From the NCBI GenBank assembly GCA_044221725.1, contig JBGAON010000001.1:672001-736000 (forward strand): a DNA stretch of 64,000 nucleotides, read 5' to 3'. Shown piece by piece: positions 39,344 through 57,591 of the stretch. Within the stretch, counting starts at the first letter, position 1; the number at the start of each line of letters is the position of its first letter. The DNA comes from Elusimicrobiota bacterium. Lineage in GTDB: Bacteria; Elusimicrobiota; Elusimicrobia; F11. The notes beneath the pieces are model-generated. The model saw only the letters and a list, made by a program, of their open reading frames with translations, had not been told where the DNA came from and did no database searches. The position numbers and the translations under genes were made by a program.

Positions 39344-39372
39344 ATTGGGAATTGTATCATGCGCCAGCGTTC

Positions 39373-41595: not shown

Positions 41596-43058
41596 TTTTT
41601 ACGTCGCTGCAGTATGTTGTTTTCTTTCCGATCGTTGCCGTAATTTATTTCCTTCTGCCCTACCGATTCCGTTGGTTGCACTTGCTCATCGCCAGCTGCG
41701 TTTTCTACATGGCGTTTATTCCGGCCTACATTCTGATTCTGTTCGGAATTATTCTTGTTGATTATTACACGGCCATTGCCATGGAAAAATCAACGCGTTC
41801 CTCGGTCCGTCTTTTGTTCTTTCTTGCCAGTTGCACCGCCAATATTGGCGTGTTGTGCGTTTTTAAATATTTCAATTTCATTAACGCGAATCTCGCGGCG
41901 CTCTTTGGGCTCGTGGATTTGCCGTACCATGTTCCGATGTTGAAATGGGCTTTGCCGATTGGATTGTCGTTTCATGTTTTTCAGTCGCTCAGTTACACGG
42001 CCGATGTTTATTACGGCTATCAACCGGCTGAAAAACGTTTGGGGTATTACGCACTCTACGTGATGTTCTTTCCGCAACTTGTCGCCGGTCCGATTGAGCG
42101 GCCCGCCCATTTGTTGCCACAACTGCACGCGGAACACAATTTTGATTTTGAGCGGCTCAAAAAGGGCGGCTTTCTGATTCTTGTCGGACTTCTAAAGAAA
42201 ATTGTCGTGGCGGACCGCCTTGGCGTGCTCGTGGACACGGTTTATCAAACACCCTCTGGCGCGAACGGCATCGCGCTGCTGATGGCGACCTTCTTTTTTG
42301 CATTCCAAATTTACGCGGATTTTTCTGCGTATACGAATATCGCTCGTGGATCGGCGCTCATTCTCGGCATTGATCTCATGGAGAATTTTGACTACCCGTT
42401 CTTTTCCGCGTCGATTCGAGAGTTCTGGCGCCGTTGGCACATTTCGCTCTCCAATTGGCTAGGCGATTACGTGTTTGTTCCATTGTGCGTGTCGATAAAA
42501 AAGCCGAAGCCTTGGAAACAATACGTCGCTTTGCTCGCTACATTTTTCATCAGCGGATTGTGGCATGGTGCGAACTGGACATTCGTTTTGTTTGGTCTCA
42601 CACACGGTATCGCTTATGTGATTGAAACGATTTGGGAGCGCTGGCGTCAGTCATGGGAGAACATTCCGTTCTTGAACCGTTTGCCGGAGGCGCCGCACGC
42701 GCTGCAAGTCTTCACCACATTTTCGATTTGCATGATTGGTTGGGTGTTTTTCCGTTCTCCTTCATTGGCCGTCGCCTCGCAGGTGTTTCACCGCATTGGT
42801 TCGTCGCTCGTCCATTTTTCTTTTGCGGATGTGGAATCGGCGATCGCGGCTTTCCCGTCGCGGATTGATCTCGTCTGCGGAATCTTTTTTATTCTCTCGC
42901 TGCTCGTTCTTGAAATGAGAGATCAGCGGGTGCCCGTCAGCGACTGGATTTTCAAACAGCCGGAATTTACCCAATGGGCGGTCGGTTACAGCCTGCTTTC
43001 GTTGTTAATTATTTTCGGTCGCTTTCAAGCGGCTCAGTTCATTTACTTTCAATTCTAA
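41592..43058 (+). CDS. MBOAT family O-acyltransferase (AlgI/DltB-like)
   Basis: LPIGLSFHVFQ, FFPQLVAGPIER, QIYADFS, FWRRWHISLS, GLWHGANW, FIYFQF end. Confidence 0.95.
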   Translation: MIFTSLQYVVFFPIVAVIYFLLPYRFRWLHLLIASCVFYMAFIPAYILILFGIILVDYYTAIAMEKSTRSSVRLLFFLASCTANIGVLCVFKYFNFINANLAALFGLVDLPYHVPMLKWALPIGLSFHVFQSLSYTADVYYGYQPAEKRLGYYALYVMFFPQLVAGPIERPAHLLPQLHAEHNFDFERLKKGGFLILVGLLKKIVVADRLGVLVDTVYQTPSGANGIALLMATFFFAFQIYADFSAYTNIARGSALILGIDLMENFDYPFFSASIREFWRRWHISLSNWLGDYVFVPLCVSIKKPKPWKQYVALLATFFISGLWHGANWTFVLFGLTHGIAYVIETIWERWRQSWENIPFLNRLPEAPHALQVFTTFSICMIGWVFFRSPSLAVASQVFHRIGSSLVHFSFADVESAIAAFPSRIDLVCGIFFILSLLVLEMRDQRVPVSDWIFKQPEFTQWAVGYSLLSLLIIFGRFQAAQFIYFQF

Positions 43059-43477
43059 TGGTGATGAAACAGATCAAAATTGAAGTCGGTGCGGTGGCGG
43101 AACTACCATTCGTGGTTTCCGAACAGGACCTCGATGCCTTCGCCCATCTCAGCGGCGATGCCAATCCGCTCCATTGCAACGACGCGTACGCCCGGTCGCA
43201 CGGTTTCCGGTCGCGCGTGGTGCACGGCGCACGAATCGTCGCGCACATTTCGAAAATGCTCGGCATGACGCTTCCGGGAAACGGATGGATCTGGCACAGC
43301 CTCAATATTCGGTTCCGCGCCCCGCTTTACATCGGTGACGAAGCGATACTTACTGGAAAAATTATTTACGAGCAGGAAGCGTTGGAAATCGTGCGCATGG
43401 AAGTGACTCTCCGCAAAGGGGATGAGGTTCTCGCCGACGGCGATGTGCAAGCCGGCCGGCTGAGCAACAAATCATGA
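43058..43477 (+). CDS. MaoC-family (hotdog-fold) dehydratase
   Basis: FAHLSGDANPLH, VVHG, FRAPLYIGD. Confidence 0.9.
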   Translation: MVMKQIKIEVGAVAELPFVVSEQDLDAFAHLSGDANPLHCNDAYARSHGFRSRVVHGARIVAHISKMLGMTLPGNGWIWHSLNIRFRAPLYIGDEAILTGKIIYEQEALEIVRMEVTLRKGDEVLADGDVQAGRLSNKS

Positions 43478-44205
43478 AGACAGTTCTTGTAACCGGGGGC
43501 AGCAGCGGTATTGGCGCGGCTCTTGCACGACGGGCCGGAAAATCGGACTGGAACGTGATTGTTGGTTATGGAAACGGAAAAGAGCGCGCCGATCAGCTTG
43601 TGTCAGAAATAAGGACGAACGGCGGCAACGCGTCGGCGCTGCCATTGGCGTTGCATGACGCCGCGCAGATGAAAGACGCGGTGACGAAAATTTCCACGCT
43701 GGTGCCACGTCTGGACGCGGTTGTCTTGTGCGCATCGCCGGCTCCGGTTCTGCAATCGTTTTTGAAAATGACGGCCGCAAACTTTAATGATCAGTTGCAC
43801 GTCAATGTTGTTTCGAACCACGCGCTTATCGTTGAGATTTGGAAAAGTTTTTTTCAAAAACAGGATGGCGGCCACGTGGTCGCCGTGCTGTCGGCGGCGA
43901 TGGAATCGCCGCCGTGGAAACACATGAGCGCGTACGTCGTTGCGAAAGCAGCGCTGCAGCAATTGTTGGAATCCGCATTAGCCGAACTTGGAGCGGATGG
44001 TTTGCGGGCGAGCGCATTTTTTCCCGACTACACCGACACGCCGATGCTGCAAGCGTGCCATCCGCTGGTTATCGAGGCGGCACGTGCATCTCGGCCGAAC
44101 GGTCGATTCTGGGATCCCGACCAAGTGGCGCAAAAAATAATGTCGGCGCTCGAAAATCCTCCAGCCGACGCGCGCCTCAGGCGTGAGTGGATGAAACTAA
44201 CATGA
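43474..44205 (+). CDS. Short-chain dehydrogenase/reductase (ketoreductase-like)
   Basis: TGGSSGIG Rossmann motif, YVVAK catalytic motif. Confidence 0.9.
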   Translation: MKTVLVTGGSSGIGAALARRAGKSDWNVIVGYGNGKERADQLVSEIRTNGGNASALPLALHDAAQMKDAVTKISTLVPRLDAVVLCASPAPVLQSFLKMTAANFNDQLHVNVVSNHALIVEIWKSFFQKQDGGHVVAVLSAAMESPPWKHMSAYVVAKAALQQLLESALAELGADGLRASAFFPDYTDTPMLQACHPLVIEAARASRPNGRFWDPDQVAQKIMSALENPPADARLRREWMKLT

Positions 44206-46016
44206 GCACCACCGCAACGTTTGCCGATTTTATTTCTCTCGCCAACCAGGATTTGGATTTTGTGGCGACGATGAAGCTTGATAACCGCTTCCAATCGTTC
44301 CTCACAGAAAAGTCGACGCACGGTTTCCCGGTTTTGCGGCTTGCCATTTTAGCGGCGGCTACCATGGATCATTTGCTGCCGGCCATTCGTGTGGGCGCGC
44401 TGCGGCGTGGAGTGGTGGTTGAATGTTATCTGGCTCCCTTTGACCAGATTCAGCAGGAATTGCTCGTCGAGACATCCGGTTGTTACGCGTTCAAGCCCGA
44501 TGTTGTGTTGGTGTCATGTGATTCGCTGAGCAAAATGCCGGAGCTGCCATTGGCCGCGTCGGAGGAGGTAATTCAAAAAACCGTGGTGGCTCTTTCGTCC
44601 GAATGGGCTCGTGCCTGGGATGTGATTCAAAACAAACTGAATGCCGTCGTTGTTCAATCGACGTTTCTCACGCCGCCTTTGCGGATGTTTGGAGAATTCG
44701 ATGCGCGTGTGCCCGCGTCGCCGTTTGCGCTCGTGCAACGTTTGAATGCGACCTTACGAGCGGAAGCGGCGAAGAAAAATGTTTTGTTGCTCGATATTGA
44801 TTCGATGGCGATGGAGCAGGGAATTGCCCAGTGGTTTGATGTTTCACTCTGGCATCATGCGAAGCAAATGATCTCGCCGGTCGCCGCGCCGCTTTTTGGC
44901 AAACGTGTTGGACAAATACTCGGTGCGGTGCGCGGCACATCGAAAAAATGTTTGGTGTTGGATTTGGATAACGTTTTGTGGGGCGGCGTGGTTGGCGATG
45001 ATGGTGTTCAAGGGCTCGTGTTCGGCCAGGGCGACGCGGTGGGCGAAGCCTTTCTCGCGTTTCAGCGTTACGTAAAACGGCTTAAAGAAGCCGGCGTGTT
45101 GTTGGCCGTGTGCAGCAAGAACGATGAATCTGTCGCCCGCGAAGTATTTGAGAAGCGTTCGGACATGCCATTAAAATTGAACGACTTCTCTATCTTTGTG
45201 GCCAATTGGAACGACAAAGCGACAAACATGGAATTCATTTCCAAGCAGTTGAACATTGGTTTGGATTCTCTGGTTTTTTTCGACGACAACCCCGCCGAAC
45301 GTGAGCTTATTCGACAGAAATTTCCGGTGATGGCAGTGCCAGAGGTGCCAGTTGATCCGTCGGGCTATGTCGATTGTCTGTCGCAAGCCGGATTTTTTGA
45401 AGCGGCCCAATTTTCTTCGGAAGATGCGAACCGATCGACGTTTTATGCGTCGAACGCACAGAGAACGGAAGCGGCCAATCAAGCGCACGACATAACGGAT
45501 TTTTTAAAAAGCTTGGAAATGGAACTCGAAATATCGCGGTTCGATGATGTTGGTGTCGCGCGCATTTCGCAGTTGATCAACAAAAGCAACCAGTACAATC
45601 TGACCACGCGCCGTTACACCGACGCCCAAGTGCGCCGGATGGTAAACGAACCGAATCTTTTAACGTACCAGGCGCGACTCAAAGACAAATTCGGTGACAA
45701 TGGAATGATCAGCGTCATCATAGCGAAGCCGTTCGACGATAAATCCCTCGTTATCGATACGTGGCTCATGAGTTGTCGCGTGCTTGGGCGGCAGGTGGAA
45801 CACAATTTGCTCAATTCGTTGGTGGCCGACGCGAAACGCGCCGGGTACAAAAAAATCATCGGCGAATATATCCCCACCGACAAAAACCACATGGTTCAGG
45901 CTTTGTACCCATCGTTTGGATTTAAAGCGATGAGCCCGAACGGTCACGCATCGCTCCTGTGGGAGTTGGATCTCGGATCGTACACGCCGTTTAAGACGTT
46001 CATCAAATCCATCTAG
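44202..46016 (+). CDS. FkbH-like HAD-IIIC glyceryl transferase/phosphatase
   Basis: KCLVLDLDNVLWGG, CSKND, FFDDNPAER, QLINKSNQYNLTT, MSCRVLGR. Confidence 0.93.
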   Translation: MSTTATFADFISLANQDLDFVATMKLDNRFQSFLTEKSTHGFPVLRLAILAAATMDHLLPAIRVGALRRGVVVECYLAPFDQIQQELLVETSGCYAFKPDVVLVSCDSLSKMPELPLAASEEVIQKTVVALSSEWARAWDVIQNKLNAVVVQSTFLTPPLRMFGEFDARVPASPFALVQRLNATLRAEAAKKNVLLLDIDSMAMEQGIAQWFDVSLWHHAKQMISPVAAPLFGKRVGQILGAVRGTSKKCLVLDLDNVLWGGVVGDDGVQGLVFGQGDAVGEAFLAFQRYVKRLKEAGVLLAVCSKNDESVAREVFEKRSDMPLKLNDFSIFVANWNDKATNMEFISKQLNIGLDSLVFFDDNPAERELIRQKFPVMAVPEVPVDPSGYVDCLSQAGFFEAAQFSSEDANRSTFYASNAQRTEAANQAHDITDFLKSLEMELEISRFDDVGVARISQLINKSNQYNLTTRRYTDAQVRRMVNEPNLLTYQARLKDKFGDNGMISVIIAKPFDDKSLVIDTWLMSCRVLGRQVEHNLLNSLVADAKRAGYKKIIGEYIPTDKNHMVQALYPSFGFKAMSPNGHASLLWELDLGSYTPFKTFIKSI

Positions 46017-46026
46017 AGAGGATGCC

Positions 46027-46287
46027 ATGGAAAATATTTCGCGCGAAGAAGTGAAAAACAGTTTGACGGAAATTTTTCGGAACGTATTTGATAACGACGC
46101 GATCACGCTGCACGATGAAATGACCGCGAAAGACGTCAAACGCTGGGATTCGCTGAATCACATCAATCTCATCGTCGCCACCGAGCAGAAATTCAAAGTG
46201 AAATTCATCACCGCGGAAGTCATTCGATTAAAAAATGTCGGCGGGTTCATCGATATGATCCTGCAGAAGCTGGCCGCGAAAAAATGA
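46027..46287 (+). CDS. Acyl carrier protein
   Basis: WDSLNH phosphopantetheine-attachment motif; RBS GAGG. Confidence 0.92.
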   Translation: MENISREEVKNSLTEIFRNVFDNDAITLHDEMTAKDVKRWDSLNHINLIVATEQKFKVKFITAEVIRLKNVGGFIDMILQKLAAKK

Positions 46288-47432
46288 TGGCTCTATTGCC
46301 AATGGTCCGTGACATAATCAAACTCGGATTGTTGTGCGTTTTGCTGGTGCTTCCTCTTGAGCTGCGTTTGCGCGTGTTCCAGTCGTCGCCATACATCGTG
46401 AAAGGACAGAAGGTCATTCTTCCCGCGAACAAGACGTACGTCTACGTAACGCACAATTCGAAAAAGCTCGACCCGGTTATTTATGTAAAGAAAAACGCGC
46501 TCGGATTCCGTGGGCCGGAGCGCCCACAAAACTTTCACGACTATTGTTCGATTATTTTTATGGGCGGGAGTTCGTTGGCGGCCGATAACTTGACTGAAGG
46601 GAAAACGTGGATCGATGATCTCAGCCGCATGTTTTCGAGCGATTTCACAAACGTTTGGATTAACAATGCCGGTTTCATGGGGCATTCGACCGTCGCTCAC
46701 CTCACATTGCTCGCGGATTACGTCGTGAATATTAAACCCGATATCGTGGTCTTCTTCGTCGGTGAGAACGAAATAAGTTTGATTCGCCAAATTGATGCCG
46801 ATGAAAACATTGTGCGCGGCACCTGGCACACGTCGGGCGTTCGGTCGTTTCTGTTGTCGATCATGCGGAATATTGACTCCGTCAATCTCGCGGTGAACCT
46901 GTACCAAACGTACGCGCGCCACGCGCGGCCGGGCGCCTATCGGGAATTGGATTTTCGCGCGGACAAAAAAATTGCGATTTCGGCGGAAGAGCGGCAAAAG
47001 CGCGTCCGCGATTACGAGCAAACAATTCTTCCAGTCGCGATGGCGCGCGTTCAAAAGCTGGTCGACATTTGTCGAGCGAACGGAATTCAGCCGGTGTTTC
47101 TTACGTTCACGGCGCTTTACAACACCGACATCGATCCCGAAACGGGCGAGCGAATTTCCGACTTTGAAGTCGACACAAACCGCAACGCGGAATTGTCACG
47201 CGAGCTCATGGGTGTGATCAATGCGCGCATTCGCGGGTTACGCGATCAAGGCGTGGTCGTTATCGATGTCGACAAGAAAATGCCGAAGAGCTCGCGCTAC
47301 TTTTCGGATTATTTCCATTTCACAAACGACGGCGCCACCGAGATGGCAAAGGCAATTTATCCGGAACTGAAGGCGGTCGTTGAAAAATATTCAGTGGTAA
47401 GAAAGCGGGCAGGAAATAATAAGGAAAGTTAG
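46284..47432 (+). CDS. Membrane-anchored SGNH/GDSL-fold protein
   Basis: N-terminal TM, NALGFRG, MGGSS, NNAG, GENE, DYFH. Confidence 0.85.
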   Translation: MMALLPMVRDIIKLGLLCVLLVLPLELRLRVFQSSPYIVKGQKVILPANKTYVYVTHNSKKLDPVIYVKKNALGFRGPERPQNFHDYCSIIFMGGSSLAADNLTEGKTWIDDLSRMFSSDFTNVWINNAGFMGHSTVAHLTLLADYVVNIKPDIVVFFVGENEISLIRQIDADENIVRGTWHTSGVRSFLLSIMRNIDSVNLAVNLYQTYARHARPGAYRELDFRADKKIAISAEERQKRVRDYEQTILPVAMARVQKLVDICRANGIQPVFLTFTALYNTDIDPETGERISDFEVDTNRNAELSRELMGVINARIRGLRDQGVVVIDVDKKMPKSSRYFSDYFHFTNDGATEMAKAIYPELKAVVEKYSVVRKRAGNNKES

Positions 47433-47447
47433 CCGAGGATCGGGATC

Positions 47448-47528
47448 CAGCCTTCGCTCTGCGAGCTACGGCCGGCAAGCGAACCTAAATGCGAAGGCTG
47501 TCCACCGTAGCCGTCAGGCGTAGGTGGA
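47448..47528. repeat. REP-like structured palindrome (nested inverted repeats, possible pseudoknot)
   Basis: cagccttcgc(47448)/gcgaaggctg(47491); tccacc(47501)/ggtgga(47523); gctacgg(47465)/ccgtagc(47505). Confidence 0.75.
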
Positions 47529-47576
47529 GACTCTTGTATAATCCATTTCCCTTCAATAAATCCCCGGGATGCGTTC

Positions 47577-47813
47577 ATGTATGTTTATTTGCTTAGAAGT
47601 TTGTCCTCTCCAGATCAAAGTTACGTTGGTTTAACCAGAAACCTGAGGCGTCGATTTGCAGAGCATCAGTCTGGGAAGACTTTCCACACAGATAAATTTC
47701 GACCTTGGAAGATCAGTTTCGCGATATGGTTTGATGATCCTGTCAAAGCAAGCAGGTTTGAGAGATATTTAAAAACAGGATCCGGTTGTGCTTTCCGAAA
47801 GAGGCATTTATAA
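47577..47813 (+). CDS. Small stand-alone GIY-YIG nuclease
   Basis: YVYLL...SYVG.T.NL.RR..EH..G....T....PW...A..FE..LK.GSG pattern. Confidence 0.9.
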   Translation: MYVYLLRSLSSPDQSYVGLTRNLRRRFAEHQSGKTFHTDKFRPWKISFAIWFDDPVKASRFERYLKTGSGCAFRKRHL

Positions 47814-47816
47814 GTT

Positions 47817-47858
47817 AGCCGAGGATCGGGATCGAACCGACGACCTGCCGCTTACGAA
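47817..47858 (-). repeat. 3' half of native tRNA-Thr(CGT); att junction with core TTACGAA at 47852-47858
   Basis: Identical to 56535-56576; identity ends exactly at the anticodon loop. Confidence 0.92.
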
Positions 47859-48077
47859 TATCGAGGGATATTTTAACTCATCGGATTGAAAATATTGATA
47901 ATTCAATATGTTTCAATGTTTCCCTGATTTTCTTGATTCCCTCAGACTTCAAAATTCTCCCGAAAGAACCCGCAAAATGTCGTGATTCATCCCAAACCGG
48001 CAAGAATTAATACTACATAACGACTTCAAAAGGAATTTCGCAGACTTCGAAATATTTCGAGGACTCCCACTTTGGAC

Positions 48078-49118
48078 TTATATCAGAGTGTCTATGCGGT
48101 TCAAGGTGCCTTGCAGGTCCTGTTGGGAGAGATGTCCATACGTCCCTTCCGTCACTTCTACCGATGAATGTCCAACCAGCTTAGAAACCTTGTAGATCGG
48201 CTCTCCTGCAGCTAGAAGCCTTTGAATAAACGTATGCCGTAACGAATGGAATGTCACATTAGGGTATCCCAAGTTACGGGTAATGTCAGAGAACCAATCT
48301 GAAACTGTCCAATGCGTTGTATCACCTAGAACAAAATCGTCCGCCTTCTTTCCTTCCATTTGTTCTCGGATAAACGATTTCAAGTTGGGAGACATTGGAA
48401 CGTGTCTGGATCGTCCGTTCTTCGTTTCAGGAAGGAAGATCGTGTTTGAATGGAGGGAAACATCCCTTGCCTTGATATGAGCCACTTCCCCAAGTCTCAT
48501 TCCTGTATGCAAAGCAACATAATAGAACGGCCATAGCTTGTCATGCTTGATGACTTCACCCCGAATAATCTTCTCTTCGTCAGGCCCAATAAACCGTGGC
48601 TTATTGCGAGGTAGCCTCGGCATAGACACCTTTGCAGCAGGATTCCGCCCATTGTATTTGTCGTGCTTGATTAAGGCGTTTATCATCGCTTTTAGGATGG
48701 AATGGTAATGGTTAATCGTCTGTGCTGAATAATTCTTCTTTGTCCGTTTGCTGATCTGATTGGATAGGTGAGTTCGTAAGTCTCTAACGTCATCTGCCGT
48801 GATCTCCCGGATTAGTTTTCCTCGTCCGAAGAAGTTCATGATTCCCGTTAGCATCAGCCTATCGTCATTGTGATCTCGTTTGTGGGGAGTAATTTGCTTC
48901 CAATACCATTCGCAACCCTCCTCAAACGTGATGTTATGGTTGGCACCGTTATTAATGAGATCTGGATAAGTCTCGGCCTTGATGGCTTCATCCTTCTTAG
49001 CTGCTTCCGCATCCAAAGCCTGCTGTCTCGTCCGAAAGCCGGATTTGTAATGGTTTGTTCCCTTTCTCATGAATTCGTAATGCCACAGTCCTGATTGTTT
49101 GTCTTGTTTAACGCTCAT
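48078..49118 (-). CDS. Tyrosine recombinase/integrase
   Basis: HTGMRLGE (R), TKNG (K), FHSLRH (HxxR), VGH, TY catalytic residues; N-terminal arm-binding-like domain; GGAGG RBS. Confidence 0.95.
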   Translation of the reverse strand: MSVKQDKQSGLWHYEFMRKGTNHYKSGFRTRQQALDAEAAKKDEAIKAETYPDLINNGANHNITFEEGCEWYWKQITPHKRDHNDDRLMLTGIMNFFGRGKLIREITADDVRDLRTHLSNQISKRTKKNYSAQTINHYHSILKAMINALIKHDKYNGRNPAAKVSMPRLPRNKPRFIGPDEEKIIRGEVIKHDKLWPFYYVALHTGMRLGEVAHIKARDVSLHSNTIFLPETKNGRSRHVPMSPNLKSFIREQMEGKKADDFVLGDTTHWTVSDWFSDITRNLGYPNVTFHSLRHTFIQRLLAAGEPIYKVSKLVGHSSVEVTEGTYGHLSQQDLQGTLNRIDTLI

Positions 49119-49247
49119 ATTAATTTCCTCCTATAGAGAGTCGTCACAATAGTTATTCACAATCTTGGGACGTTCATTACTCTTTATATGGGAAATCATG
49201 ATTTCTATTTACAATGACAAGGATTTCAATCGTTATCGTCTGGATAA

Positions 49248-49285
49248 AAAAATACCCTTCAACTACAAAAATGAAGGGTATTTTT
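49248..49285. terminator. Bidirectional intrinsic terminator
   Basis: aaaaatacccttca-N10-tgaagggtattttt. Confidence 0.8.
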
Positions 49286-49300
49286 CCCAGGCTAGAGGTA

Positions 49301-49663
49301 TTACTCTGGACTTTTAGGTTGTAGTGAAGAGATGTCGAGTACTTTTGTGAATTGTGGTTTACGACGATCCACTACAACTACGACTTTAACGTAGTTCCCA
49401 ATTACAAGCTTTGGATCAAGTTCCTCTTGGATTTGACTTGGGTCAACATTCATGGCTGTTAACCAGTCATAGAGTTTTGATGAGTTTTGAAGGCTGGCTG
49501 GTACGAAGCCACTAACTCTATGTTCTGCGAATTCCCCGGTTACAATTTTGAATACAAACCTAAGCGATAATCCGTATTCTGATGAGTGTTGGATAAGGTC
49601 TACAACTTTGGCTGTATACATCCCCGGCTGAACGACTTCTGGTGTTGTGCTATTTCTTTCCAT
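49301..49663 (-). CDS. DUF669-like/phage OB-fold putative ssDNA-binding protein
   Basis: PGMYTAKVVD...FVFKIVTGEF...LYDWL.A...VIGNYVKVVV pattern; AAGGA RBS. Confidence 0.55.
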   Translation of the reverse strand: MERNSTTPEVVQPGMYTAKVVDLIQHSSEYGLSLRFVFKIVTGEFAEHRVSGFVPASLQNSSKLYDWLTAMNVDPSQIQEELDPKLVIGNYVKVVVVVDRRKPQFTKVLDISSLQPKSPE

Positions 49664-49899
49664 TTTTTTATTCCTTTCAATGAGCAATTTTGCGACATGG
49701 CATACTGCGCCATCTAGAATTATTCAGGAACGGCTGAAATCCATTCGATAAAAATGAGAATTCAAATTTGTTCTAGAAATCAATGCGTTTTCAATGGGAT
49801 GTAATAATTCAGCATATAGGTAGGAGACTACTAAGGTCTTCTGATCCCCAGAATAGTCATCAAAATTCTAGGGGCAATTTTCAATCGCGGAGGACTTAA

Positions 49900-50703
49900 A
49901 TGTTTTACCTTGAGAATAAGTATTTAGATAATAATCTGTCTTTAAAGCTAAGAATCATTAAACAGCCCAGAATTAAATCCTATATCAAAGGTAAAACATT
50001 TTCGGCTCCTGCTCCTGACGGAAAGTGTTCAGATTGTCCCAAGACCGAATCTTGTAGTTGGCACCGAAAGAAAGCCTATGACAGAAACTCTCCTTTATTG
50101 TGCAACTCTTGCTATCAAAGAATCTTTCGTCAGTCTGGGCACATTAAGCCAACTAGGAACTCTCAGGCCTATAACAGGGCCTATTACAGAAACCATAAAT
50201 GGCGCTATTTCGACTATTCAACTCCAGATGGATACTTAAGACACCTATATAACTCTTACCTGAAGCGGACTTTCTCGAAGGATCTTAAAATCCCTGAAGA
50301 CAGATTCGTTCAGACAATGAAAAAAGACCGGACATTCATAGACATGTATTTGGAGTGGTCAGACTCTCAATTTAATCCTCTGATGCAACCTCAAATTCGA
50401 CGTATTAGTTTTAAGGGGTCTTTGGCTATCGGGGATCTAACTTGGAGGCGGAAAAAAGATGTCGATGAGGAAAGGGTTAGAAAAAAGGAGCTTTTTGCTC
50501 AATATGTTCAATATCTAATCAAGCTAAGAAAAGACCATTCAGAGACAGAAATCTTCGACAGCATCAAAACTAATGGCAGTAAATTCTCAGGCAGGAAGTT
50601 TAATCGTACCCTGGTTGTAAAAGAATTTCAGGCACAAATAAAAAAGCAACTTGAGCTAGGACAATTGTTGGATTACCAAGGCTATCTGTACCCATCAAAT
50701 TAA
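49900..50703 (+). CDS. Hypothetical basic protein with Zn finger and degenerate HNH-like segment
   Basis: GGAGG RBS; CSDC...CNSC; FIDMYLEW...PQIRRISFKG...DLTW. Confidence 0.55.
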   Translation: MFYLENKYLDNNLSLKLRIIKQPRIKSYIKGKTFSAPAPDGKCSDCPKTESCSWHRKKAYDRNSPLLCNSCYQRIFRQSGHIKPTRNSQAYNRAYYRNHKWRYFDYSTPDGYLRHLYNSYLKRTFSKDLKIPEDRFVQTMKKDRTFIDMYLEWSDSQFNPLMQPQIRRISFKGSLAIGDLTWRRKKDVDEERVRKKELFAQYVQYLIKLRKDHSETEIFDSIKTNGSKFSGRKFNRTLVVKEFQAQIKKQLELGQLLDYQGYLYPSN

Positions 50704-50881
50704 TCTGTTTACTACGGAATAAGTTTTGGAATCCTATGTGGAAAGCTCTAGGTTGTCTTTCCCGTTCATCGTAATAAGTACAGGAATAGGCCAACAAGGT
50801 TATTCAATTATCTGATTCTTCCTACTGTTTACCGCTGATTCCGACTGTTAACGTCTTCGGAGAATCAACGTAACACTCTCT

Positions 50882-51070
50882 ATGAAGAATGCTTTTGTTC
50901 GGCAGGTCTATTATCTGATGTTCGAGCAAACGCTTTATGGCCCATACGATTCAATTCAAGATATCGACAAGCGTTACCAGGAATTGGACACGGATGGACG
51001 AGAAAAGAAAAACGTCGTGATTGTTACCCACCTAAACATCCCATTCCTCAAAGACTCATCCCTTAATTAA
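50882..51070 (+). CDS. Small hypothetical protein
   Basis: 62-aa ATG ORF in otherwise empty AT-rich space. Confidence 0.4.
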   Translation: MKNAFVRQVYYLMFEQTLYGPYDSIQDIDKRYQELDTDGREKKNVVIVTHLNIPFLKDSSLN

Positions 51071-51181
51071 TTGCCTTTATGATCAGATCCCTACTCGGTC
51101 AGCAATTATCTATGGGTTGGGTTCGAAACATCGTTTAAATCCGAAATATGAAGCGATAGAAACCAATCTAAGGATGGATTC

Positions 51182-51841
51182 TCAGTAGATTTTCTTGAGT
51201 TTGTGATTTTTGAAGAAAACTATCCGTTTTTCAAAAGTCCGCTTAGCGCATACTTTGACGGATTCCATTCGATCCTTCATAAGCCGTTTCAGGATTGCTT
51301 TTGGACAATTCCCATTCCTAGCTACTCCTCTACGAACAATCGCTTTTCCATCTTCCGCCAATTCAGAAAGCCTTTTTTCAGGAATCCAAAGGTTCATACC
51401 CGCATAGGATCGAACAAGATCATTTTTATCTCGGCTTAGTTTAAGAATTACAGCCTTTGGACTTCTTGGATTAATGGCTACTTCTGCCCGAACATAACAA
51501 TCTGGATCGGTGGAAAGCTTTTCGAGAAGCGAAGTATTTGCATTTGGATGGCGAGCAATAGCGACTCTCGTCTGATCCATGTAACTGTCTTCCAGTTCAT
51601 CTCTGATAGCCTTAAGCGTATCGGAATCCGTATTCTTGTTATAGGCCAGGAATTTCCTGTCGATAATGCTTGGACTAATGAGAAGCCTTTGGATAGCAGA
51701 CTTGGGAAGAGACTTATTTCGCAAGGCCGCAATTCGTACTTTCCAGCTTGGATGGAACACAAGGCGTTCAAGAATTAGAGAATCGGTCTCGGTATCTTTA
51801 GCTAGGCGAACAGCTATGTTTATCTTGGCAGTCTGATCCAT
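51182..51841 (-). CDS. HEAT/LRV-repeat protein
   Basis: Repeated L..L..D....VR..VA.NP units. Confidence 0.8.
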   Translation of the reverse strand: MDQTAKINIAVRLAKDTETDSLILERLVFHPSWKVRIAALRNKSLPKSAIQRLLISPSIIDRKFLAYNKNTDSDTLKAIRDELEDSYMDQTRVAIARHPNANTSLLEKLSTDPDCYVRAEVAINPRSPKAVILKLSRDKNDLVRSYAGMNLWIPEKRLSELAEDGKAIVRRGVARNGNCPKAILKRLMKDRMESVKVCAKRTFEKRIVFFKNHKLKKIY

Positions 51842-51889
51842 GAATTAAATACTTCATTCATGGAATTTGTTTGAAAGTAGTTTGAGAAG

Positions 51890-52246
51890 TTAAGCGGCTT
51901 TGGGAAGTTTCTTAACTACATCTAGGAGGGCTTTGTAATCCTCATATGGAACAGCGATGCTTTTGCTCGATCCAGAGGTAGGGGGTGGATTGGTAACTGT
52001 AGGTTTTGATAACGAAAAGCTCATATGATCAGGATTTACACAGTGTCGATTTTCACAGGTCCGATAAAGTTTTTGGCCTTGAGCCAGAGGCTCCTTTCCC
52101 CAAGCCTGCCAAACAGCTCTATTGGCTGCCTCTGAGCCAATAATTCCGTAATCTAGTTCATCATAGGCACCATCCCATAGCCAACATGGCCCAGGTGCTG
52201 TGGACTGTCTTATTTTTGATTGCAAATTTTTCTGAGAATGAGGCAT
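51890..52246 (-). CDS. HNH (His-Cys box/HNH_3-like) endonuclease homolog, probably inactive
   Basis: CWLWDG...YG...ANRAVW...LYRTCENRHCVNPDH; GGAGG RBS. Confidence 0.7.
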   Translation of the reverse strand: MPHSQKNLQSKIRQSTAPGPCWLWDGAYDELDYGIIGSEAANRAVWQAWGKEPLAQGQKLYRTCENRHCVNPDHMSFSLSKPTVTNPPPTSGSSKSIAVPYEDYKALLDVVKKLPKAA

Positions 52247-52425
52247 CGGTCCCTCCGTAACTTTGTCTATTGAGCATAAAGGGTCTCACCGAAATTTCAA
52301 TCAAAAAAAATAAAAAAAATAAGAAACGAATTGAAATCGTGGACTTTTCAACTCATACTCACTTAGCTGTGGTTTTGCCAGAAGCTGTTCGTTTTGGGAT
52401 GGGGTTCCACTCAAAGTAAAGGGAA

Positions 52426-53271
52426 ATGGAGAAACTTTTTAATGGTCCAAAAAATTACGTGGGTTTCTATGATCTCATGGTCAGAATAAGACTGTTGCTA
52501 ATTCCATCTCTTATTGGCCTTTTGTTTAGTGGATGTGCAGGACTGCCTATAAGAAATAGTTCCGATGCTAGAGGTGTTCTTGGGGTTATTACCAAAGTAG
52601 ATAAAAATAAATTTTATGTCGTGAAGGTTTTTGAAAAATCTGCAGCAGATAATATGGGATTGAGAATCGGTGATGTGATCATTTCTTTCAATGGAAGAGA
52701 AATAATGAACCGAGATGATCGAATGGATTACGTCGATTACATCGCTGGTTCGCCGAATAAACCAATTGAACTTGTTGTTAAGCGCAATGGGTCTTTGTCA
52801 ACTTTAAGCGGTATTTTAGGTGGAATTCGGGTCGAGAAAGAGGATCAGGTATTTGATGTGATCTCTAGGTTAGTTTATATCGGCGATAATGTTTCCGTAG
52901 CGTTTGTGATAGATGATATGCGTTGCCCGATATGTACGGGATTCAATGTTAAAGAATGGAAAGAAGGTGTGAAAACAGATCTTTTAAGCAAAACGGAGTC
53001 AGCGTATCTCTCTGTGCATAAAGGCAATAAGAATTTCAGAATCGTTGACAGGAATAAAATTGAGAGATTATTGGCTGAAATGAATTTTCAAATGACTGGG
53101 GCAGTTTCACCTGAACAGGTAAAACAAATTGGGAAAATGTCTGGAGCGTCGCATATTGGATTTATCAGTTTTTCCAGAATGGGATCGCCCAATTCGCCAC
53201 AAGACTTGGTTGTTGTAAGGCTTTTGGATGTTGAAACCGGAGATGTTATTGCATCCCAGAGATGGGATTGA
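52426..53271 (+). CDS. Lipoprotein with PDZ domain and CsgG/HfaB-like C-terminal domain
   Basis: Lipobox LFSGC; KSAADNMGLRIGDVII PDZ; FRIVDR...IGKMSGA...RLLDVETG. Confidence 0.75.
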   Translation: MEKLFNGPKNYVGFYDLMVRIRLLLIPSLIGLLFSGCAGLPIRNSSDARGVLGVITKVDKNKFYVVKVFEKSAADNMGLRIGDVIISFNGREIMNRDDRMDYVDYIAGSPNKPIELVVKRNGSLSTLSGILGGIRVEKEDQVFDVISRLVYIGDNVSVAFVIDDMRCPICTGFNVKEWKEGVKTDLLSKTESAYLSVHKGNKNFRIVDRNKIERLLAEMNFQMTGAVSPEQVKQIGKMSGASHIGFISFSRMGSPNSPQDLVVVRLLDVETGDVIASQRWD

Positions 53272-53273
53272 TA

Positions 53274-53453
53274 ATGGAACTATCCAATAACGATCAGAAA
53301 TTGCTATTGCAAGTAAAAGAATTTCTTAAGAATAATCCCATTCCCCAACCTGCATTTCCAGCTCCTAATCGTGATCGACTTGCAAACGAAGCTATTGAGT
53401 TACTTGATAAGGCATATGAGTTGATAAATAATCAGGTCAATTCTCAATCGTAA
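53274..53453 (+). CDS. Small hypothetical protein
   Basis: ATG 2 nt after upstream stop. Confidence 0.45.
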   Translation: MELSNNDQKLLLQVKEFLKNNPIPQPAFPAPNRDRLANEAIELLDKAYELINNQVNSQS

Positions 53454-53685
53454 TCATTTCCAAATTCAAGGCGCTAATCCGATGCAGTTTTTTACCCCCT
53501 CGTGCAATGTAACGAGCTCATGCGGCTGATCAGTTTTGCGATTTAATTGGCCTTTTTGGCGTACTCTTTGGGCTTGAATAGGAATCGTTTTAATTGTGTT
53601 TAGATTGTCGAATGATTGTCACAGGAAAATCACTTAATGCCCTTAGGCTAAGGGGGAAAGACAGGATGCATGAAGGAGGGCATTA

Positions 53686-53862
53686 ATGAGAAAACTGCTC
53701 GTTTTTTGTTTAAGTATTTACTCAATGCTTATGTTGTCAGGTTGTAATCGTCAAATGCTGGCATCAGTTTTAAGGGGTGTAGGAAATGGGATGGAAGAAT
53801 CCAGCCGGAAGATGTCATGCGACGCTGATCCCAATTGCATTAATGTAAATGTTCGCAACTAA
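53686..53862 (+). CDS. 58-aa putative lipoprotein (below ORF-track cutoff)
   Basis: AAGGAGG RBS; MRKLLVFCLSIYSMLMLSGC lipobox; translated by hand. Confidence 0.65.
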   Translation: MRKLLVFCLSIYSMLMLSGCNRQMLASVLRGVGNGMEESSRKMSCDADPNCINVNVRN

Positions 53863-53927
53863 GATCTGCTTGTCTTCTCTCCATGTCTCCAATTGATGAA
53901 TTTCCTCATTAGACCTTTGGAGGATGT

Positions 53928-54302
53928 ATGTTAATGCTTCAGGTCGCTGGTGGAATTCTCCTCGCATTTGCCATCCTGTGGATTATCAATTTTGTTGTTC
54001 AAAATAAGACGCGTGGTAGGTTAGTCGACCAACGATATTCGTTTTTAAATCAAGCAATACTAAACGAAGCGTCTAAAGTTCTTATTGGTAAGAGCGACAG
54101 CGAACAGAAGGATGCTGGAGAGTTTCTGAAAAGAGTATTTGAGGATCGAAACAATGCGCGTATAGCTGACCAACTTGGAATGCATGGGACTGATAGTATG
54201 GCCAATATGACAGACGACGAATTTAGGAAGTATGTTGAAAAAATTTCAGTTGGTGTGGCTTCGTTGGTTGTTGCTAAAAAGTATGCATGGCCTCCGAGCT
54301 AG
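53928..54302 (+). CDS. Hypothetical protein with N-terminal TM helix
   Basis: GGAGG RBS, hydrophobic N-terminus. Confidence 0.65.
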   Translation: MLMLQVAGGILLAFAILWIINFVVQNKTRGRLVDQRYSFLNQAILNEASKVLIGKSDSEQKDAGEFLKRVFEDRNNARIADQLGMHGTDSMANMTDDEFRKYVEKISVGVASLVVAKKYAWPPS

Positions 54303-54646
54303 GCCTAGTGACAAAAGTTGATAAGATTTTTTGGGAGATCTCATCTCCCTCTTAAGGAGGACATATGTTGAAACTCATTTTGAGGGATGCTCGTTTCCGC
54401 TTGACGCTACCAAAGTGCGACCCTTCGCTATCTCGCTGACAGGCGAGACGTGGAGATAAGTTGCATGGCGATGCCTAGCGGGAGATAACCTGAGAAATCA
54501 GGGAAAGCGGTATCCCCTGGGTCTGTCAACCTGGGACAAGGTATTGCCGAGTCTCCCCTTTAATGCTGATTTATTCCTGCCAAGAGGTTAACTCGCCACA
54601 AATTTAGTCTGCTAGTTAGCACTGCCTACTTCATTTTCAATAAAAC

Positions 54647-54692
54647 AAAAGCCCCCTAGATAAGTCTAAGACCTAAATAGGGGGCTTTTTTT
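54647..54692. terminator. Bidirectional intrinsic terminator
   Basis: aaaagcccccta...tagggggcttttt between convergent units. Confidence 0.8.
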
Positions 54693-54948
54693 ATTCTTTA
54701 GATGGGAAACGAATGCAAACTTGGGAATTGATAACGGCAAGTTCTAATTCTTTGTTGATAGCCATTCCAAGTGTTACATAGTTTATGAGGATTTCTGAGG
54801 CCCATCGGCGAAGCACTTCTATTTCTTTTTCGCCCACAGGGTAATGTTTTTCACTTTCCTTGAGATTATTCACTAACGAAGTGAACTCTTCAGAGGTTAA
54901 GTTCGAAAGGCCAGAAATATACTCTGGGCTAAACGATGTTCTTGTCAT
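54691..54948 (-). CDS. Hypothetical protein
   Basis: AAGGAG RBS, 85-aa ORF. Confidence 0.6.
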   Translation of the reverse strand: MTRTSFSPEYISGLSNLTSEEFTSLVNNLKESEKHYPVGEKEIEVLRRWASEILINYVTLGMAINKELELAVINSQVCIRFPSKE

Positions 54949-55122
54949 TTTATTCTCCTTTTAAAGATCAAATTAGGGCATTGAATGCCCCACAAATGAT
55001 TCAAGAAACGGAGATTTTCATTAGATACGAAACAGGCTGATTTTTAGATGTGTTTTTAAGCGCAGTTTTTTGGGAGGAATTTAGAGAGTGTAAGCCGATT
55101 CCTCGGCAGAAGACTAGGGAAA

Positions 55123-55392
55123 CTAATTCGTTCGATTATTAAAAACTTCTTTAAATGGCCGATAGTGTTTCAATACCTTGAGAATGTTTTCAGGGGAAAT
55201 TACTTCAACGGCCATAATGCCGTAACCTCTATGGTCAATGAAATTTACTGAGCCATCAGAGTGCATGATGCACATGACATCATCTATCACAACAGAAGAA
55301 AGAGCCTTCTCGACCCATTTCTCGATGATGTCCATTCCCTCATCCATTTTGACTTTCTCAAGTGCTTTGGCAAGTTCGACTGCTTTGGTCAT
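55123..55392 (-). CDS. Hypothetical protein translationally adjacent to Shedu
   Basis: ATG directly follows the Shedu TAA stop. Confidence 0.6.
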   Translation of the reverse strand: MTKAVELAKALEKVKMDEGMDIIEKWVEKALSSVVIDDVMCIMHSDGSVNFIDHRGYGIMAVEVISPENILKVLKHYRPFKEVFNNRTN

Positions 55393-56514
55393 TTAGCTAC
55401 CCTTCTCAAGAAGAGAAATCAACGTTCTGATCTTCTCGAACAATTCATCGAAAGTAATGACCTCAACATTTCTAAGGTTGGAACGGAAGAGTTCAAAGGA
55501 ACGACGCTTAGTCCTATCGTCTAAGGATTTCGTGTTTCCGACGATAAGCAAACCCTTCGGACAAAGATTCTGAAGTTCAGGATTGTCTTTGGAAAGCTTA
55601 TACCAGTCTGTTTGAGCTTCGTTCTGGTAGTTCAAAATCTGAGTAACACCTCCTGAAACGTCGGAAGACGGAGGATAGACATTGTCACGGTACTTCAATC
55701 CTACGAGAGAAGAGACTGGAGTCTTAATCTCGATATAGACGAGGTTATGCGTGATCTTGTTTTTATAAAGGTAATCGATCAGGTTTCCGCCCTTGTTGTC
55801 GAACTGTTTTCCTCCGACGTAGGCTTTATCTTGGAAGAGAATAATCGGAGCAGAGAAGACCTGGCTTATAACCCAAGGGTTCTCCGAAAGCTGTTTTTGC
55901 CAGAATTCTTCATCCTTGTTATTGGCATTGACAGTCCAGGTAGCTAGAGCTTTCTTAAGGGCTGAAAGGCTAAGGGACGTTTGAAGGTTGGAAAGCCGCT
56001 CCTTATCTATTGTAACGAGCTTATCGATCAACCCCTTCTCGTCAAACGTGGAAAGCCATTTGAGGGCAGAAACAACAAAATCCTCTCCACCTGTCTTGAG
56101 AAGTTTTTCTAGGGTTTCAGGCTTATCAACCAAATCCTTAACGACGGAGCTGATATTGGAAGGGGTAATGATGAATTCGTTGTCTCCGAGGACAATCCCA
56201 TGCTGTTGAACGAGGTGGTAACAATTCCGAAGGTTACCTATTAACTTGAAAACTTCTTCGGAACTGAGATCTAGCTGGAAGTATTGATCTTTTACGAGCT
56301 TATTAAGATCGAGAGAACGGTAATCCTGCCAAGCATCCTTAACGGACTTCTTTTGATAGACGAAAAGACCTCGGACGGCATGAGCGGAATTCTTTGGGTT
56401 ATCAACTAAGGTGGGTCGGAATACTAAACGGATTCGATCTCCGTCTCGAAGAATGACATCTTCACAAACGGCGGTAACAAGGGAGGTTGATCTAGTCTTT
56501 ATTGATTCTGACAA
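55393..56514 (-). CDS. sduA: Shedu anti-phage nuclease (DUF4263, PD-(D/E)xK)
   Basis: EEFWQ..L.ENPW, YVGGK...IDYL, IEIKTP, GGVTQ, LIVG, FELFR...VEVITFDEL; TTG start with AGAGGA RBS. Confidence 0.88.
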   Translation of the reverse strand: MSESIKTRSTSLVTAVCEDVILRDGDRIRLVFRPTLVDNPKNSAHAVRGLFVYQKKSVKDAWQDYRSLDLNKLVKDQYFQLDLSSEEVFKLIGNLRNCYHLVQQHGIVLGDNEFIITPSNISSVVKDLVDKPETLEKLLKTGGEDFVVSALKWLSTFDEKGLIDKLVTIDKERLSNLQTSLSLSALKKALATWTVNANNKDEEFWQKQLSENPWVISQVFSAPIILFQDKAYVGGKQFDNKGGNLIDYLYKNKITHNLVYIEIKTPVSSLVGLKYRDNVYPPSSDVSGGVTQILNYQNEAQTDWYKLSKDNPELQNLCPKGLLIVGNTKSLDDRTKRRSFELFRSNLRNVEVITFDELFEKIRTLISLLEKGS

Positions 56515-56534
56515 TAATATCCTCTTAAAGTGTA

Positions 56535-56607
56535 AGCCGAGGATCGGGATCGAACCGACGACCTGCCGCTTACGAAGCGGCTGCTCTACCAGCTGAGCTA
56601 CCTCGGC
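56535..56607 (-). tRNA. tRNA-Thr(CGT), complete copy located inside the element
   Basis: Reverse complement folds as cloverleaf: gccgagg/cctcggc, gccgc-ttCGTaa-gcggc. Confidence 0.96.
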
Positions 56608-56773
56608 ATTTGGAAAAGTTGAAACTTCCTTTACTGACTATCCCAACGTTTCTCTTAACGCTTGCTCACTTCAAAATCGGTTAATTAGCAATACGCTGCA
56701 AAATCATGCGGAATTTTACGTTTTTCCTCGTCGGATAACCCCTGGTAATTAACCCTTTTTTAACCCCAACGTA

Positions 56774-56811
56774 TTACGAAGCGGCTGCTCTACCAGCTGA
56801 GCTACCTCGGC
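56774..56811 (-). repeat. 5' half of native tRNA-Thr(CGT); att junction with core at 56774-56780
   Basis: Identical to 56570-56607; joined to 47817-47858 through the 7-bp overlap it rebuilds a 73-nt tRNA. Confidence 0.92.
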
Positions 56812-56851
56812 GTTGGGCGGTGATTGTAACAAATGAAGGGAAGCGGTCTAT
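56812..56851 (-). promoter_or_regulatory. Native tRNA-Thr promoter (extended -10 TGtTACAAT, GC-rich discriminator)
   Basis: Minus strand reads tagacc...tgttacaat-caccgcccaac then tRNA 5' end. Confidence 0.65.
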
Positions 56852-56855
56852 CTTC

Positions 56856-57591
56856 TCAGGTTTGTAGCACAAAGAGCCGAGAAACCAGCGGAATTCTTTT
56901 TAATAAATAGGAAAGAGCGGCCGAGCCCGCGAAGATGAGACATGTGACCACCGGCACGCCAATGAACGGTGTTCCTCCTGTTTTCTCCGAGATCGCAATT
57001 CCCAAATGCCCCTTGATCAACAGCCACAAGAAGAAAACGTGGATAAGATAGACGTTGTAGCTGTCGGCGCTGAAATAGGTAACGGTGCGTTCCAGCCACC
57101 GGTGACGTTCGTAAATCGAGTTCCCGCGTTTGCGCCGACCGCACGATCAACCGGAGGACCGGAGCAAGAAAGTAAAGCCCTATGATCATATAGACAAACC
57201 ACAGATGAAACTCCGTTGGACCATTGAACATGTCGATGGCAGCTTGTTGAAACGAGAACGGAGTTTCGTTCATGCGCGCTTCGTAATAGGAATAAATAAA
57301 GGACCAGCCGATGAACGGCGGAACCACTTTCAACAATCGTTTTTTAAGGAAATCCACGGCGAATTCTTGTTTGGTTGACGTAAGCAAAAGTGTTCCGGAG
57401 ATCATCACAAACAGCGGAACGCACAAACGGATCACGGAATCCAGCAGATTAAAGACCCACCAAACGCCGAGCGGGTAATCGTTCATGCCCGCGCATACCG
57501 GCGCAAACACGTGCGAGAAGATGACGAGAAAGATGGCGTAAGCGCGAATCGCGTCGAGATGATAAATGCGGCCCGCGCTATTTTGTTGCAC
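56856..57591 (-). pseudogene. Acyltransferase-3 family (WecH/OafA-like) pseudogene with internal out-of-frame deletion
   Basis: N-terminal LDAIRAYAIF.V...H, VPLFVMISG, HLWF; near 57115 the C-terminal SYNVYLIH motif continues in another frame to a stop at 56856; central TM block missing. Confidence 0.8.

Follow-up and report, generated by a model that had tools for sequence, protein, structure and literature searches.

Within a 64,000-nucleotide stretch of an Elusimicrobiota genome (the window; G000:C3:672001-736000, G000 being the window genome), positions 47852-56780 appear to form an 8.9-kb tyrosine-integrase island that carries a Shedu defence gene and interrupts the host tRNA-Thr(CGT) gene, all parts of which lie on the minus strand. 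We consider it probable that this is one integrative defence island whose attachment site (attP) consists of a right arm, 7 bp of the anticodon loop and a spacer, that both halves of the host gene are left stranded, and that a whole tRNA gene carried by the island replaces the interrupted one.

The stranded 5' half of the host gene (56774-56811, 38 nt) and the stranded 3' half (47817-47858, 42 nt) show no mismatch to the whole tRNA-Thr(CGT) (56535-56607) that lies inside the island, 166 bp from the left junction. As the first-pass annotation of this locus had claimed, the halves overlap only in the 7-nt anticodon loop, which places the left junction (attL) at 56774-56780 and the right junction (attR) at 47852-47858. 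When rejoined by script, they were called by ARAGORN as tRNA-Thr(cgt) with a score of 123, while ARAGORN called no tRNA at either junction as sequenced (for the left end, this presupposes the junction at 56774-56780). The identical full-length copy near one end, also part of the earlier claim, was called by the same program, and it is the sole intact tRNA-Thr(CGT) among the 48 tRNA genes found in G000, which include one tRNA-Thr(TGT) and one tRNA-Thr(GGT). The island interval has 41% GC, and the 166-bp spacer between the whole tRNA and the left junction 38.6%, compared with 49-50% in the flanks. An attP holding a tRNA fragment that restores the target gene is not found in the window; formally, one would exist only if an older unit had been joined by a 3'-repairing island, an alternative taken up below.

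The spacer (56608-56773, minus strand) is single-copy in the genome and is proposed to be the left attachment arm, whereas the right arm comprises 219 bp on the integrase side (47859-48077, minus strand) and holds no tRNA 5' half. The spacer had been described as AT-rich, with a motif also found at the integrase end, and indeed ACTTCAAAA is present in both arms, once in the spacer (56668-56676) and twice in the right arm (47946-47954 and 48023-48031). A TTTTGAAGT-like motif, picked after viewing the sequence, has five copies in the 8.9 kb, of which two lie in the spacer and three in the right arm. The resulting repeats on both sides of the loop (56695-56703 and 56668-56676 in the spacer; 48044-48052, 48023-48031 and 47946-47954 in the right arm) are candidate integrase-binding sites of the arm type. 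We also counted the 8-mers common to the integrase-side arm and the DNA behind the stranded 5' half, in comparison with 2000 shuffles. By this measure 11 of 13 island ends passed (shuffles as good in at most 46 of 2000), and one (G020) shared no word. For the right arm and spacer, shuffles did as well in 9 of 2000 cases in the related genome G003 and in 145 of 2000 in the window, the latter a weak result. In the 160 bp after the inner tRNA, no 8-mer was common with the right arm in four of five whole-tRNA islands, including those of G000 and G003, while the fifth (G487) had two words (324 of 2000). A Shedu or MUG113 gene begins 10-20 bp after the inner tRNA, which leaves no room for an arm there. 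As the right arm has words in common with the spacer and not with the stretch that follows the inner tRNA, the simplest reading is that the spacer serves as the left arm of this integrase family. A CCGACGA-like word lies 31-43 nt past the loop in the left arms of 8 of 13 relatives, a pattern recognised post hoc; in the window a word of this type lies at 40 nt, and in G002 and G003 it has one change each.

Members of the same taxonomic family provide the closest comparisons. The spacer was found in 3 of 12 family genomes (G000, G002, G003; 86-89% identity in G003 and G002) and the right arm in two (G000, G003). In G003, which belongs to the same genus, both island ends are present at the same host locus, on two contigs and with identical 7-bp junctions; the outer flanks differ, and another gene (MUG113/T5orf172) lies 10 bp past the inner tRNA. 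The right arms of G000 and G003 are identical at 210 of 219 positions and the integrase regions at 92%, and the closest integrase to the window protein is 91% identical. The host genes of G001, G002 and G003, in comparison, are mostly 67-71% alike to those of G000, with one stretch at 76%. Since arms and integrase are far more alike than the host genes, the non-coding arms and the integrase have either moved together or been kept under strong constraint. An empty site had been proposed as a check, and 6 of the 9 other family loci (G001, G004, G005, G006, G008, G009) do have an unsplit single tRNA-Thr(CGT) gene, in G005 in the plain order Phe-Thr-M48-Val.

Two further family members contain what may be remains of such islands. 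G002 has the 5' half with three changes at the same junction as in the window and G003, the spacer, the whole tRNA unchanged, and behind it two further 3' halves with another arm. At its start, one of these additional units resembles the window DNA that follows the tRNA, and it still contains a remnant of the open reading frame (ORF) at 55123-55392. The block of 5' half, spacer and whole tRNA suggests a scar, and the changes in the stranded half, with none in the inner tRNA, support a carried gene that has taken over. In G007 a stranded 5' half is followed by a ParE-type pair and then by a whole tRNA of different sequence, whose anticodon stem pairs with the stranded half at 2 of 5 positions; behind this tRNA, a fragment of the cargo gene known from G003, its first 43 codons, is fused to the host M48 gene. 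By all appearances, G007 is a case of a replaced tRNA with the island interior deleted. The first-pass annotation had also suggested tandem integration into the island's own tRNA, for which the two extra units of G002 would be candidates, but their arms have no clear words in common with the spacer and thus leave tandem integration unsupported. As a separate observation, similar-looking DNA lies directly upstream of the stranded 5' halves in G002 and G007, which belong to different genera (L040:16310-16780, L049:3460-3614); by eye we take it to be a decayed nucleotidyltransferase/HEPN-type pair.

The G002 block also speaks for an alternative with two events, which we consider unlikely. According to this alternative, an older 204-bp unit, in which the 5' half and the 166 bp would be a miniature form or a deletion remnant of a 5'-repairing element, was followed by an ordinary 3'-repairing island with ends at 56570-56576 and 47852-47858, and the whole tRNA is a regenerated hybrid. 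In G002 the 204-bp block with its decayed 5' half indeed occurs with no matching integrase and with two other 3' halves that have a different arm, and 3'-fragment islands are the rule (3760 of 3919; PMC4383910). Miniature 5'-side inserts do exist within the taxonomic class: in G028 (L044:9559-9869 = G028:C22:56558-56872) a tRNA-Thr(TGT) lies behind two 119-bp units, each a 5' half with a short spacer. That spacer recurs at several other sites in the genome, one of them beside a tRNA, and thus marks a family of miniature 5'-side inserts; we had considered the stacked halves of G028 as tandem scars of whole-tRNA islands, and dropped this because the spacer is a multi-copy mini-repeat. The spacer of the window, in contrast, occurs once in the genome, and between species whose genes are about 70% alike it is conserved to the same degree as the integrase. 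Moreover, the placement of an island end within the inner tRNA would call for an arm directly behind it, where we found no arm words and no room.

The relatives of the integrase speak to the same question. A search of 401 genomes of the phylum returned 58 matches in 47 genomes, and a search of the class returned 12 matches in 10 of 393. Long regions were read for 20 of the 57 non-self phylum matches (15 of the best 16 and five weaker ones) and for four class matches, giving 24 loci. An intact tRNA stands behind the integrase in 20 of the 24, in the same direction and within 790 bp or overlapping the integrase end, and in one more (G270, the first member of a tandem) a 5' half stands there. Among the 20, eight have a matching 5' half that ends at the anticodon loop 1.5-17.6 kb upstream (targets Ser-GCT twice, Ser-TGA, Phe, Leu-CAA, Leu-TAA, Glu-CTC and Ala-CGC); no upstream 5' half was found for the other 12, eight of which have less than 10 kb of upstream DNA, and one of the 20 (G413:C71) has an additional 3' half 1.2 kb downstream. 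Taken together, 21 of the 24 relatives fit an island that would repair its target from the 5' side, and none has a plain 3'-repair layout at the integrase's own site, which the two-event alternative would lead one to expect. In five relatives (G404:C24, G038:C17, G023:C30, G092:C5, G019:C8) the integrase frame runs into or through the downstream tRNA, as in integrases that span their own attachment site; the G038 integrase has only 301 aa. Tandem 5'-repairing islands, in the order integrase, 5' half, next island, integrase, whole tRNA, were seen in G270:C17 (L095, L096) and G020:C66 (L083).

The remaining three of the 24 loci (G413:C7, G487:C7, G032:C1), all at tRNA-Ser(TGA), share the layout of the window, so that the arrangement expected of integrase homologues by the first-pass annotation is present in a minority and 5' repair fits the rest. 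In each, 158-1205 bp lie between the stranded 5' half and the whole tRNA, which is followed by defence cargo, the integrase, the arm, the loop and the stranded 3' half. The cargo consists of type I restriction-modification, AbiE and a reverse transcriptase in G413, of Mrr and Sir2-HerA in G487, and of DUF499/SNF2 in G032. The 5' half of the inner tRNA and the stranded 5' half differ at 7, 4 and 8 of 32 places in G413, G487 and G032, respectively. Whereas the stranded 5' half pairs at 5 of 5 anticodon-stem positions with the far 3' half, it pairs with the inner tRNA at only 3 of 5 in G413 and 2 of 5 in G032. These differences and the poor pairing indicate that the inner tRNA of the Ser islands is foreign cargo and not a repaired hybrid, which again disagrees with two events. 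The three islands with a non-hybrid inner tRNA, the joint travel of the island ends between species and the repeats in the arms all favour the attP proposed at the outset, which shares only the core with the target and comes with a whole tRNA. As a detail of G413:C7 (L128:3647-15249), the restriction-modification system has an inserted Fic and reverse transcriptase and is accompanied by an AbiE pair. Independently of cargo type, a MUG113/T5orf172 gene or its start lies directly behind the carried tRNA in G003, G007 and G032 (L041:109-834, L049:4374-4500, L084:17666-18271).

To place the whole-tRNA layout on a tree of the integrases, we used 36 rows, namely the 24 relatives, the window, P0001 for the integrase of G003, and 10 context-free homologues. 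On this tree the whole-tRNA label needs three changes, at least two of them forced by well-supported branches. For an approximately unbiased (AU) test we omitted the long or truncated rows G105, G413:C71 and G038 as well as the 10 context-free rows, and took four distant rows as the root; the test rejected the five whole-tRNA rows as one clade (p-AU 2e-41). These rows are placed among others whose integrase is followed by an intact tRNA. The two Thr rows have a 5'-repairing Phe island as their sister, and the Ser rows are mixed with rows of the 5' type. The whole-tRNA layout thus probably arose at least twice, and parsimony, applied to kin that are not independent of each other, points to 5' repair as the ancestral state. 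The island of the window seems to descend from islands that, as a family, normally repair their target gene. In the ancestral mode, an arm, a promoter and a 5' half behind the integrase gene would repair the target from the 5' side, and at least two lineages would have lost the 5' half and come to depend on a whole tRNA at the other end. Five homologues (P0002-P0006; 58-59% identity) are known from protein alone, no relative was found in viral contigs, and annotated phages gave only distant integrases, all below 60% identity and 26-27% in the top rows.

An assembly artefact from collapsed or duplicated tRNA repeats, which had been named as one way in which the proposed layout could fail, is very improbable. 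The 38- and 42-bp repeats do exceed typical assembly words. However, contigs of X1, one of the four sequencing runs whose contigs we examined (X1, X16, X4 and X6, of 16 runs listed), carry words across all four junctions, the same block is present in G002 and G003 with the spacer at 86-89%, and the same layout is found in three other families. X1 is not independent evidence, because it is possibly the source sample. One X16 contig joins position 47816 to the whole tRNA and stops at the tRNA end. This joint would be natural for an ordinary 3'-repairing island and fits either model, but as it crosses the 42-bp repeat it can also be a path of the assembly. Contig depths in X1 (flanks 31 and 27, interior 22.5, spacer 21.5, whole-tRNA junction 25.7) would also fit some element-free cells that lack the spacer; we did not count them as evidence, because depth tracks GC and not the share of cells.

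In the mechanism that we propose for the single island, its circular form would carry a lambda-type site in which the 7-bp anticodon-loop overlap lies between the 219-bp arm on the integrase side and the 166-bp spacer arm. The integrase would bind the arm repeats and recombine this site with the anticodon loop of tRNA-Thr(CGT), and the gene would be rebuilt at neither junction. The carried tRNA, co-oriented with the host gene and 166 bp inside, would fall behind the host tRNA promoter and take over; if the island were then excised precisely, the host gene would be whole again. If, instead, the interior were lost by recombination between the 42-bp 3' repeats or at the inner loop, what remained would be a scar like those in G002 and G007, with the host gene replaced for good. 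A promoter-like site, with -35 and extended -10 elements, lies at 56823-56850 (minus strand), upstream of the stranded 5' half and outside the island. It had been noted before, and it is present as described, scoring 9/12 with the TG and being the only sigma-70-like site in 56300-57000, but with 0.7 sites expected from shuffles, a single site is by itself no more than chance would give. A consensus scan found no promoter of its own for the inner tRNA. As no terminator-like site was found in the spacer on the tRNA strand, read-through into the inner tRNA may be possible. Folding of the read-through RNA (z -1.97) told us little, except that the stranded half might compete for the acceptor stem.

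The host gene is split as had been claimed, and the carried copy may rescue it. The gene may not be essential, however, as a tRNA-Thr(TGT) is also present, even though ACG is the commonest Thr codon in G000 (17149 of 37966, a crude six-frame count over long ORFs). A tRNA-Thr(UGU) is often able to read ACG by wobble. In the Ser(UGA) islands the need for the carried tRNA should be strict if no other copy exists. This leads to a further alternative, to which we give a small chance, in which the history is as we propose but the island is now fixed, or able to use either left site, and the inner tRNA serves mainly as a spare landing site and is not needed because tRNA-Thr(UGU) covers ACG. The presence of tRNA-Thr(TGT), the scars in G002 and G007, the two additional 3' halves that follow the inner tRNA in G002, and the failure to see an excision product are all in line with this possibility. 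It is at odds with an intact integrase with its six catalytic residues, with arms that are nearly identical between two species, with the abundance of ACG codons, and with an inner tRNA in G002 that stays unchanged while the stranded half decays.

Several observations weigh against the proposed single island. The circle junction, a check suggested by the first-pass annotation, was found in the contigs of none of the four runs, although contigs drop rare forms and cannot show absence, and a scan of metagenomes for the right junction gave one match, a chance hit in the coding sequence of an unrelated contig. No excisionase was recognised in the island by Pfam or PHROGs, no empty site comes from the same species, and the integrase of G003 lacks its first ~33 residues through a deletion. 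Spacer DNA in strains without the element had been named as evidence that would speak for a classical attachment site within the whole tRNA, and this was seen in part, in that G002 keeps the spacer and the whole tRNA but has no close integrase or right arm. In the window, the unbiased arm test gave a weak result (the 145 of 2000 given above), and the stem test does not discriminate in G487 (5 of 5 in both pairings). In the window the inner tRNA equals the host halves, so that the locus by itself is compatible with a hybrid origin; such identity is nevertheless expected, because 5 of the 9 family tRNAs compared are identical to the inner tRNA. Finally, none of the five right arms of whole-tRNA islands showed a relic of the 5' half above shuffles in alignment scores (in the window, 5 of 31 places match), which leaves the tree as the sole source for the direction from 5' repair to a carried whole tRNA. 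A decayed 5' half seemed visible by eye in the right arms of the three Ser islands, and was rejected because its scores were not above shuffles.

The layout noted in the first-pass annotation is real, but the principle of a short core with a carried cognate tRNA is already known as tRNA-dependent lysogeny, described for the actinobacteriophages Fionnbharth (K4), cluster L, Gaia (X) and Gordonia CQ2/DL (Guerrero-Bustamante and Hatfull, 2024; PMC10865867). That paper also names Lactobacillus Lj965 and raises tandem integration into the carried tRNA. As described there, the phage systems and our island have in common a tyrosine integrase, an attB in a tRNA gene, the lack of a rebuilt tRNA at either junction and a cognate whole tRNA on the element, as well as repairing sister integrases and more than one origin. 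Arm-type repeats flank the core on both sides in the phages, and the island has candidates for them. The common core is 8-17 bp in the phages and 7 bp in the island. There are clear differences: the island has defence cargo and no structural-gene matches (Pfam and PHROGs, 13 cargo ORFs); its tRNA lies 166 bp inside the junction and points in the same direction as the host promoter, while in Fionnbharth the tRNA gene has a promoter to itself, overlaps gene 37 and is not identical to the host copy; and the repairing sisters supply the 3' half in the phage systems and the 5' half in the family of the island. In the case of the island, which is known from sequence alone, the disrupted target may also be non-essential. 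The island would work like tRNA-dependent lysogeny without being a member of it, because it is no phage and the carried tRNA may not be essential. Similarly, certain Sinorhizobium meliloti prophages integrate in the middle of a tRNA, inactivate the host tRNA-Leu(UAG) and carry the same isoacceptor as a foreign copy (PMC11476347). These are intact prophages (2 of 88 elements) whose carried tRNA is ~81% like that of the host, and no link to 5' repair is reported in the accessible part of that paper.

Islands collected by Islander restore the gene with a fragment in attP, which is a 5' fragment in 159 of 3919 (PMC4383910). Our island resembles the class A islands of that collection in its anticodon-loop crossover, the tyrosine integrase inside, the tDNA target and the stranded 5' half; among the loci read here, the Islander layout with a stranded 5' fragment is typical for most relatives of its integrase. 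Unlike Islander islands, the window has both halves stranded and the gene unrepaired. Judged from their stated rules (integrase inside, at least 2 kb), the Islander filters would probably call this locus an ordinary 3'-fragment island with a wrong left end. The accessible parts of three other papers (PMC9897764, PMC12429752, PMC13626063) added nothing on integration with a carried tRNA. A literature search, with most subscription papers beyond its coverage, found no published non-phage version and no rise of this mode from 5'-repairing integrases. In the sources as far as accessible, the principle is described mainly for phages (PMC10865867, PMC11476347), and a non-phage version derived from 5' repair would be new. 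The present loci add that repair from the 5' side is the norm in this integrase family, that it has apparently given way to a carried whole tRNA at least twice, and that scars show lasting replacement of a tRNA gene.

How tRNA-dependent integration relates to repairing systems, and whether it reaches beyond actinobacterial phages, is left open in PMC10865867. The sister integrases described here act on the same tRNA (Ser-UGA, and also Thr-CGT) in both modes and in non-phage defence islands, which makes the switch comparable and assayable. They also show how foreign tRNA genes can take the place of host ones, as in G007, and if the tRNA is needed, the island would be hard to lose by imprecise deletion. 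Island finders based on tRNA fragments can misplace the left end, and would then deliver a wrong attP for integrase mining. In the most general form, to which we give about even odds, a whole clade of Elusimicrobiota integrases that repairs tRNA genes from the rare 5' side has switched at least twice (at Thr-CGT and at Ser-UGA) to no repair, with a whole tRNA parked close behind the left junction and downstream of the host promoter. Once the interior is lost, this tRNA would remain as the only such gene of the host, so that the islands serially swap host tRNA genes, and they may make up a hidden, mis-delimited share of island databases. If this is true, their mimicry of ordinary 3'-fragment islands would be the reason that such islands are possibly hidden there.

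As for the genes of the island, the tyrosine integrase (48078-49118, minus strand, 346 aa; PF00589, Int_N; phrog_1 over residues 5-345) is oriented toward the right junction and has all catalytic residues (R208, K233, H291, R294, H317, Y327). An Arm-DNA-bind_4 domain was seen at E 0.055 in one of seven aligned integrase homologues, and not in the window protein. At the other end, the Shedu (SduA) anti-phage nuclease (55393-56514, minus strand) starts 20 bp after the inner tRNA and matches Pfam SduA_N and SduA_C and, over its full length, PADLOC PDLC00399 (E 3.8e-121). The ORF next to it (55123-55392, minus strand, 89 aa) has no family, and its remnant in G002 (55% over 38 aa) lies behind a stranded 3' half. 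The rest of the cargo comprises a PDZ-domain protein with a weak CsgG match (52426-53271, plus strand; Pfam), an HNH endonuclease-like gene (51890-52246, minus strand; PHROGs 1872 and 3593), a leucine-rich-variant (LRV)/HEAT repeat protein (51182-51841, minus strand; Pfam) and a 267-aa ORF without a family (49900-50703, plus strand), which is partly present (66% at the DNA level) beside the integrase in G003. The small protein at 49301-49687 (minus strand) had no match in Pfam or PHROGs; an ESM Atlas score of 0.95, with mostly viral look-alikes and DUF669 on about half of the cluster members, provides a lead toward a DUF669-like protein. Neither PHROGs, applied to 13 cargo ORFs, nor Pfam gave a recognisable match to virion, repressor, conjugation or excisionase genes. 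With 8.9 kb, no virion or repressor matches, and at most the HNH gene and the DUF669-like lead, the island does not look like a recognisable phage.

Just outside the right junction lies a small separate unit (47428-47813), single-copy in the genome, with a GIY-YIG gene (47577-47813, plus strand), GC-rich palindromic repeats and, beyond that gene, a second tRNA 3'-end fragment (47428-47448) that the first-pass annotation had overlooked. It seems to be a separate entry into the tRNA 3' end. About 8 kb of genes (39300-47432) separate the 3' end of tRNA-Thr from the M48 gene, which in G003 and G005 comes immediately after the tRNA; some of these genes adjoin tRNA-Thr in G001. On the other side, an acyltransferase-3 ORF (56848-57591) covers no more than the first half of its Pfam model, has an apparent frame change near 57030 and is possibly frameshifted. 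Elsewhere in the genome, at G000:C5:431553-431598, a 46-nt 3' fragment of tRNA-Pro(GGG) lies 11.8 kb from the whole gene and delimits another, ordinary-looking island.

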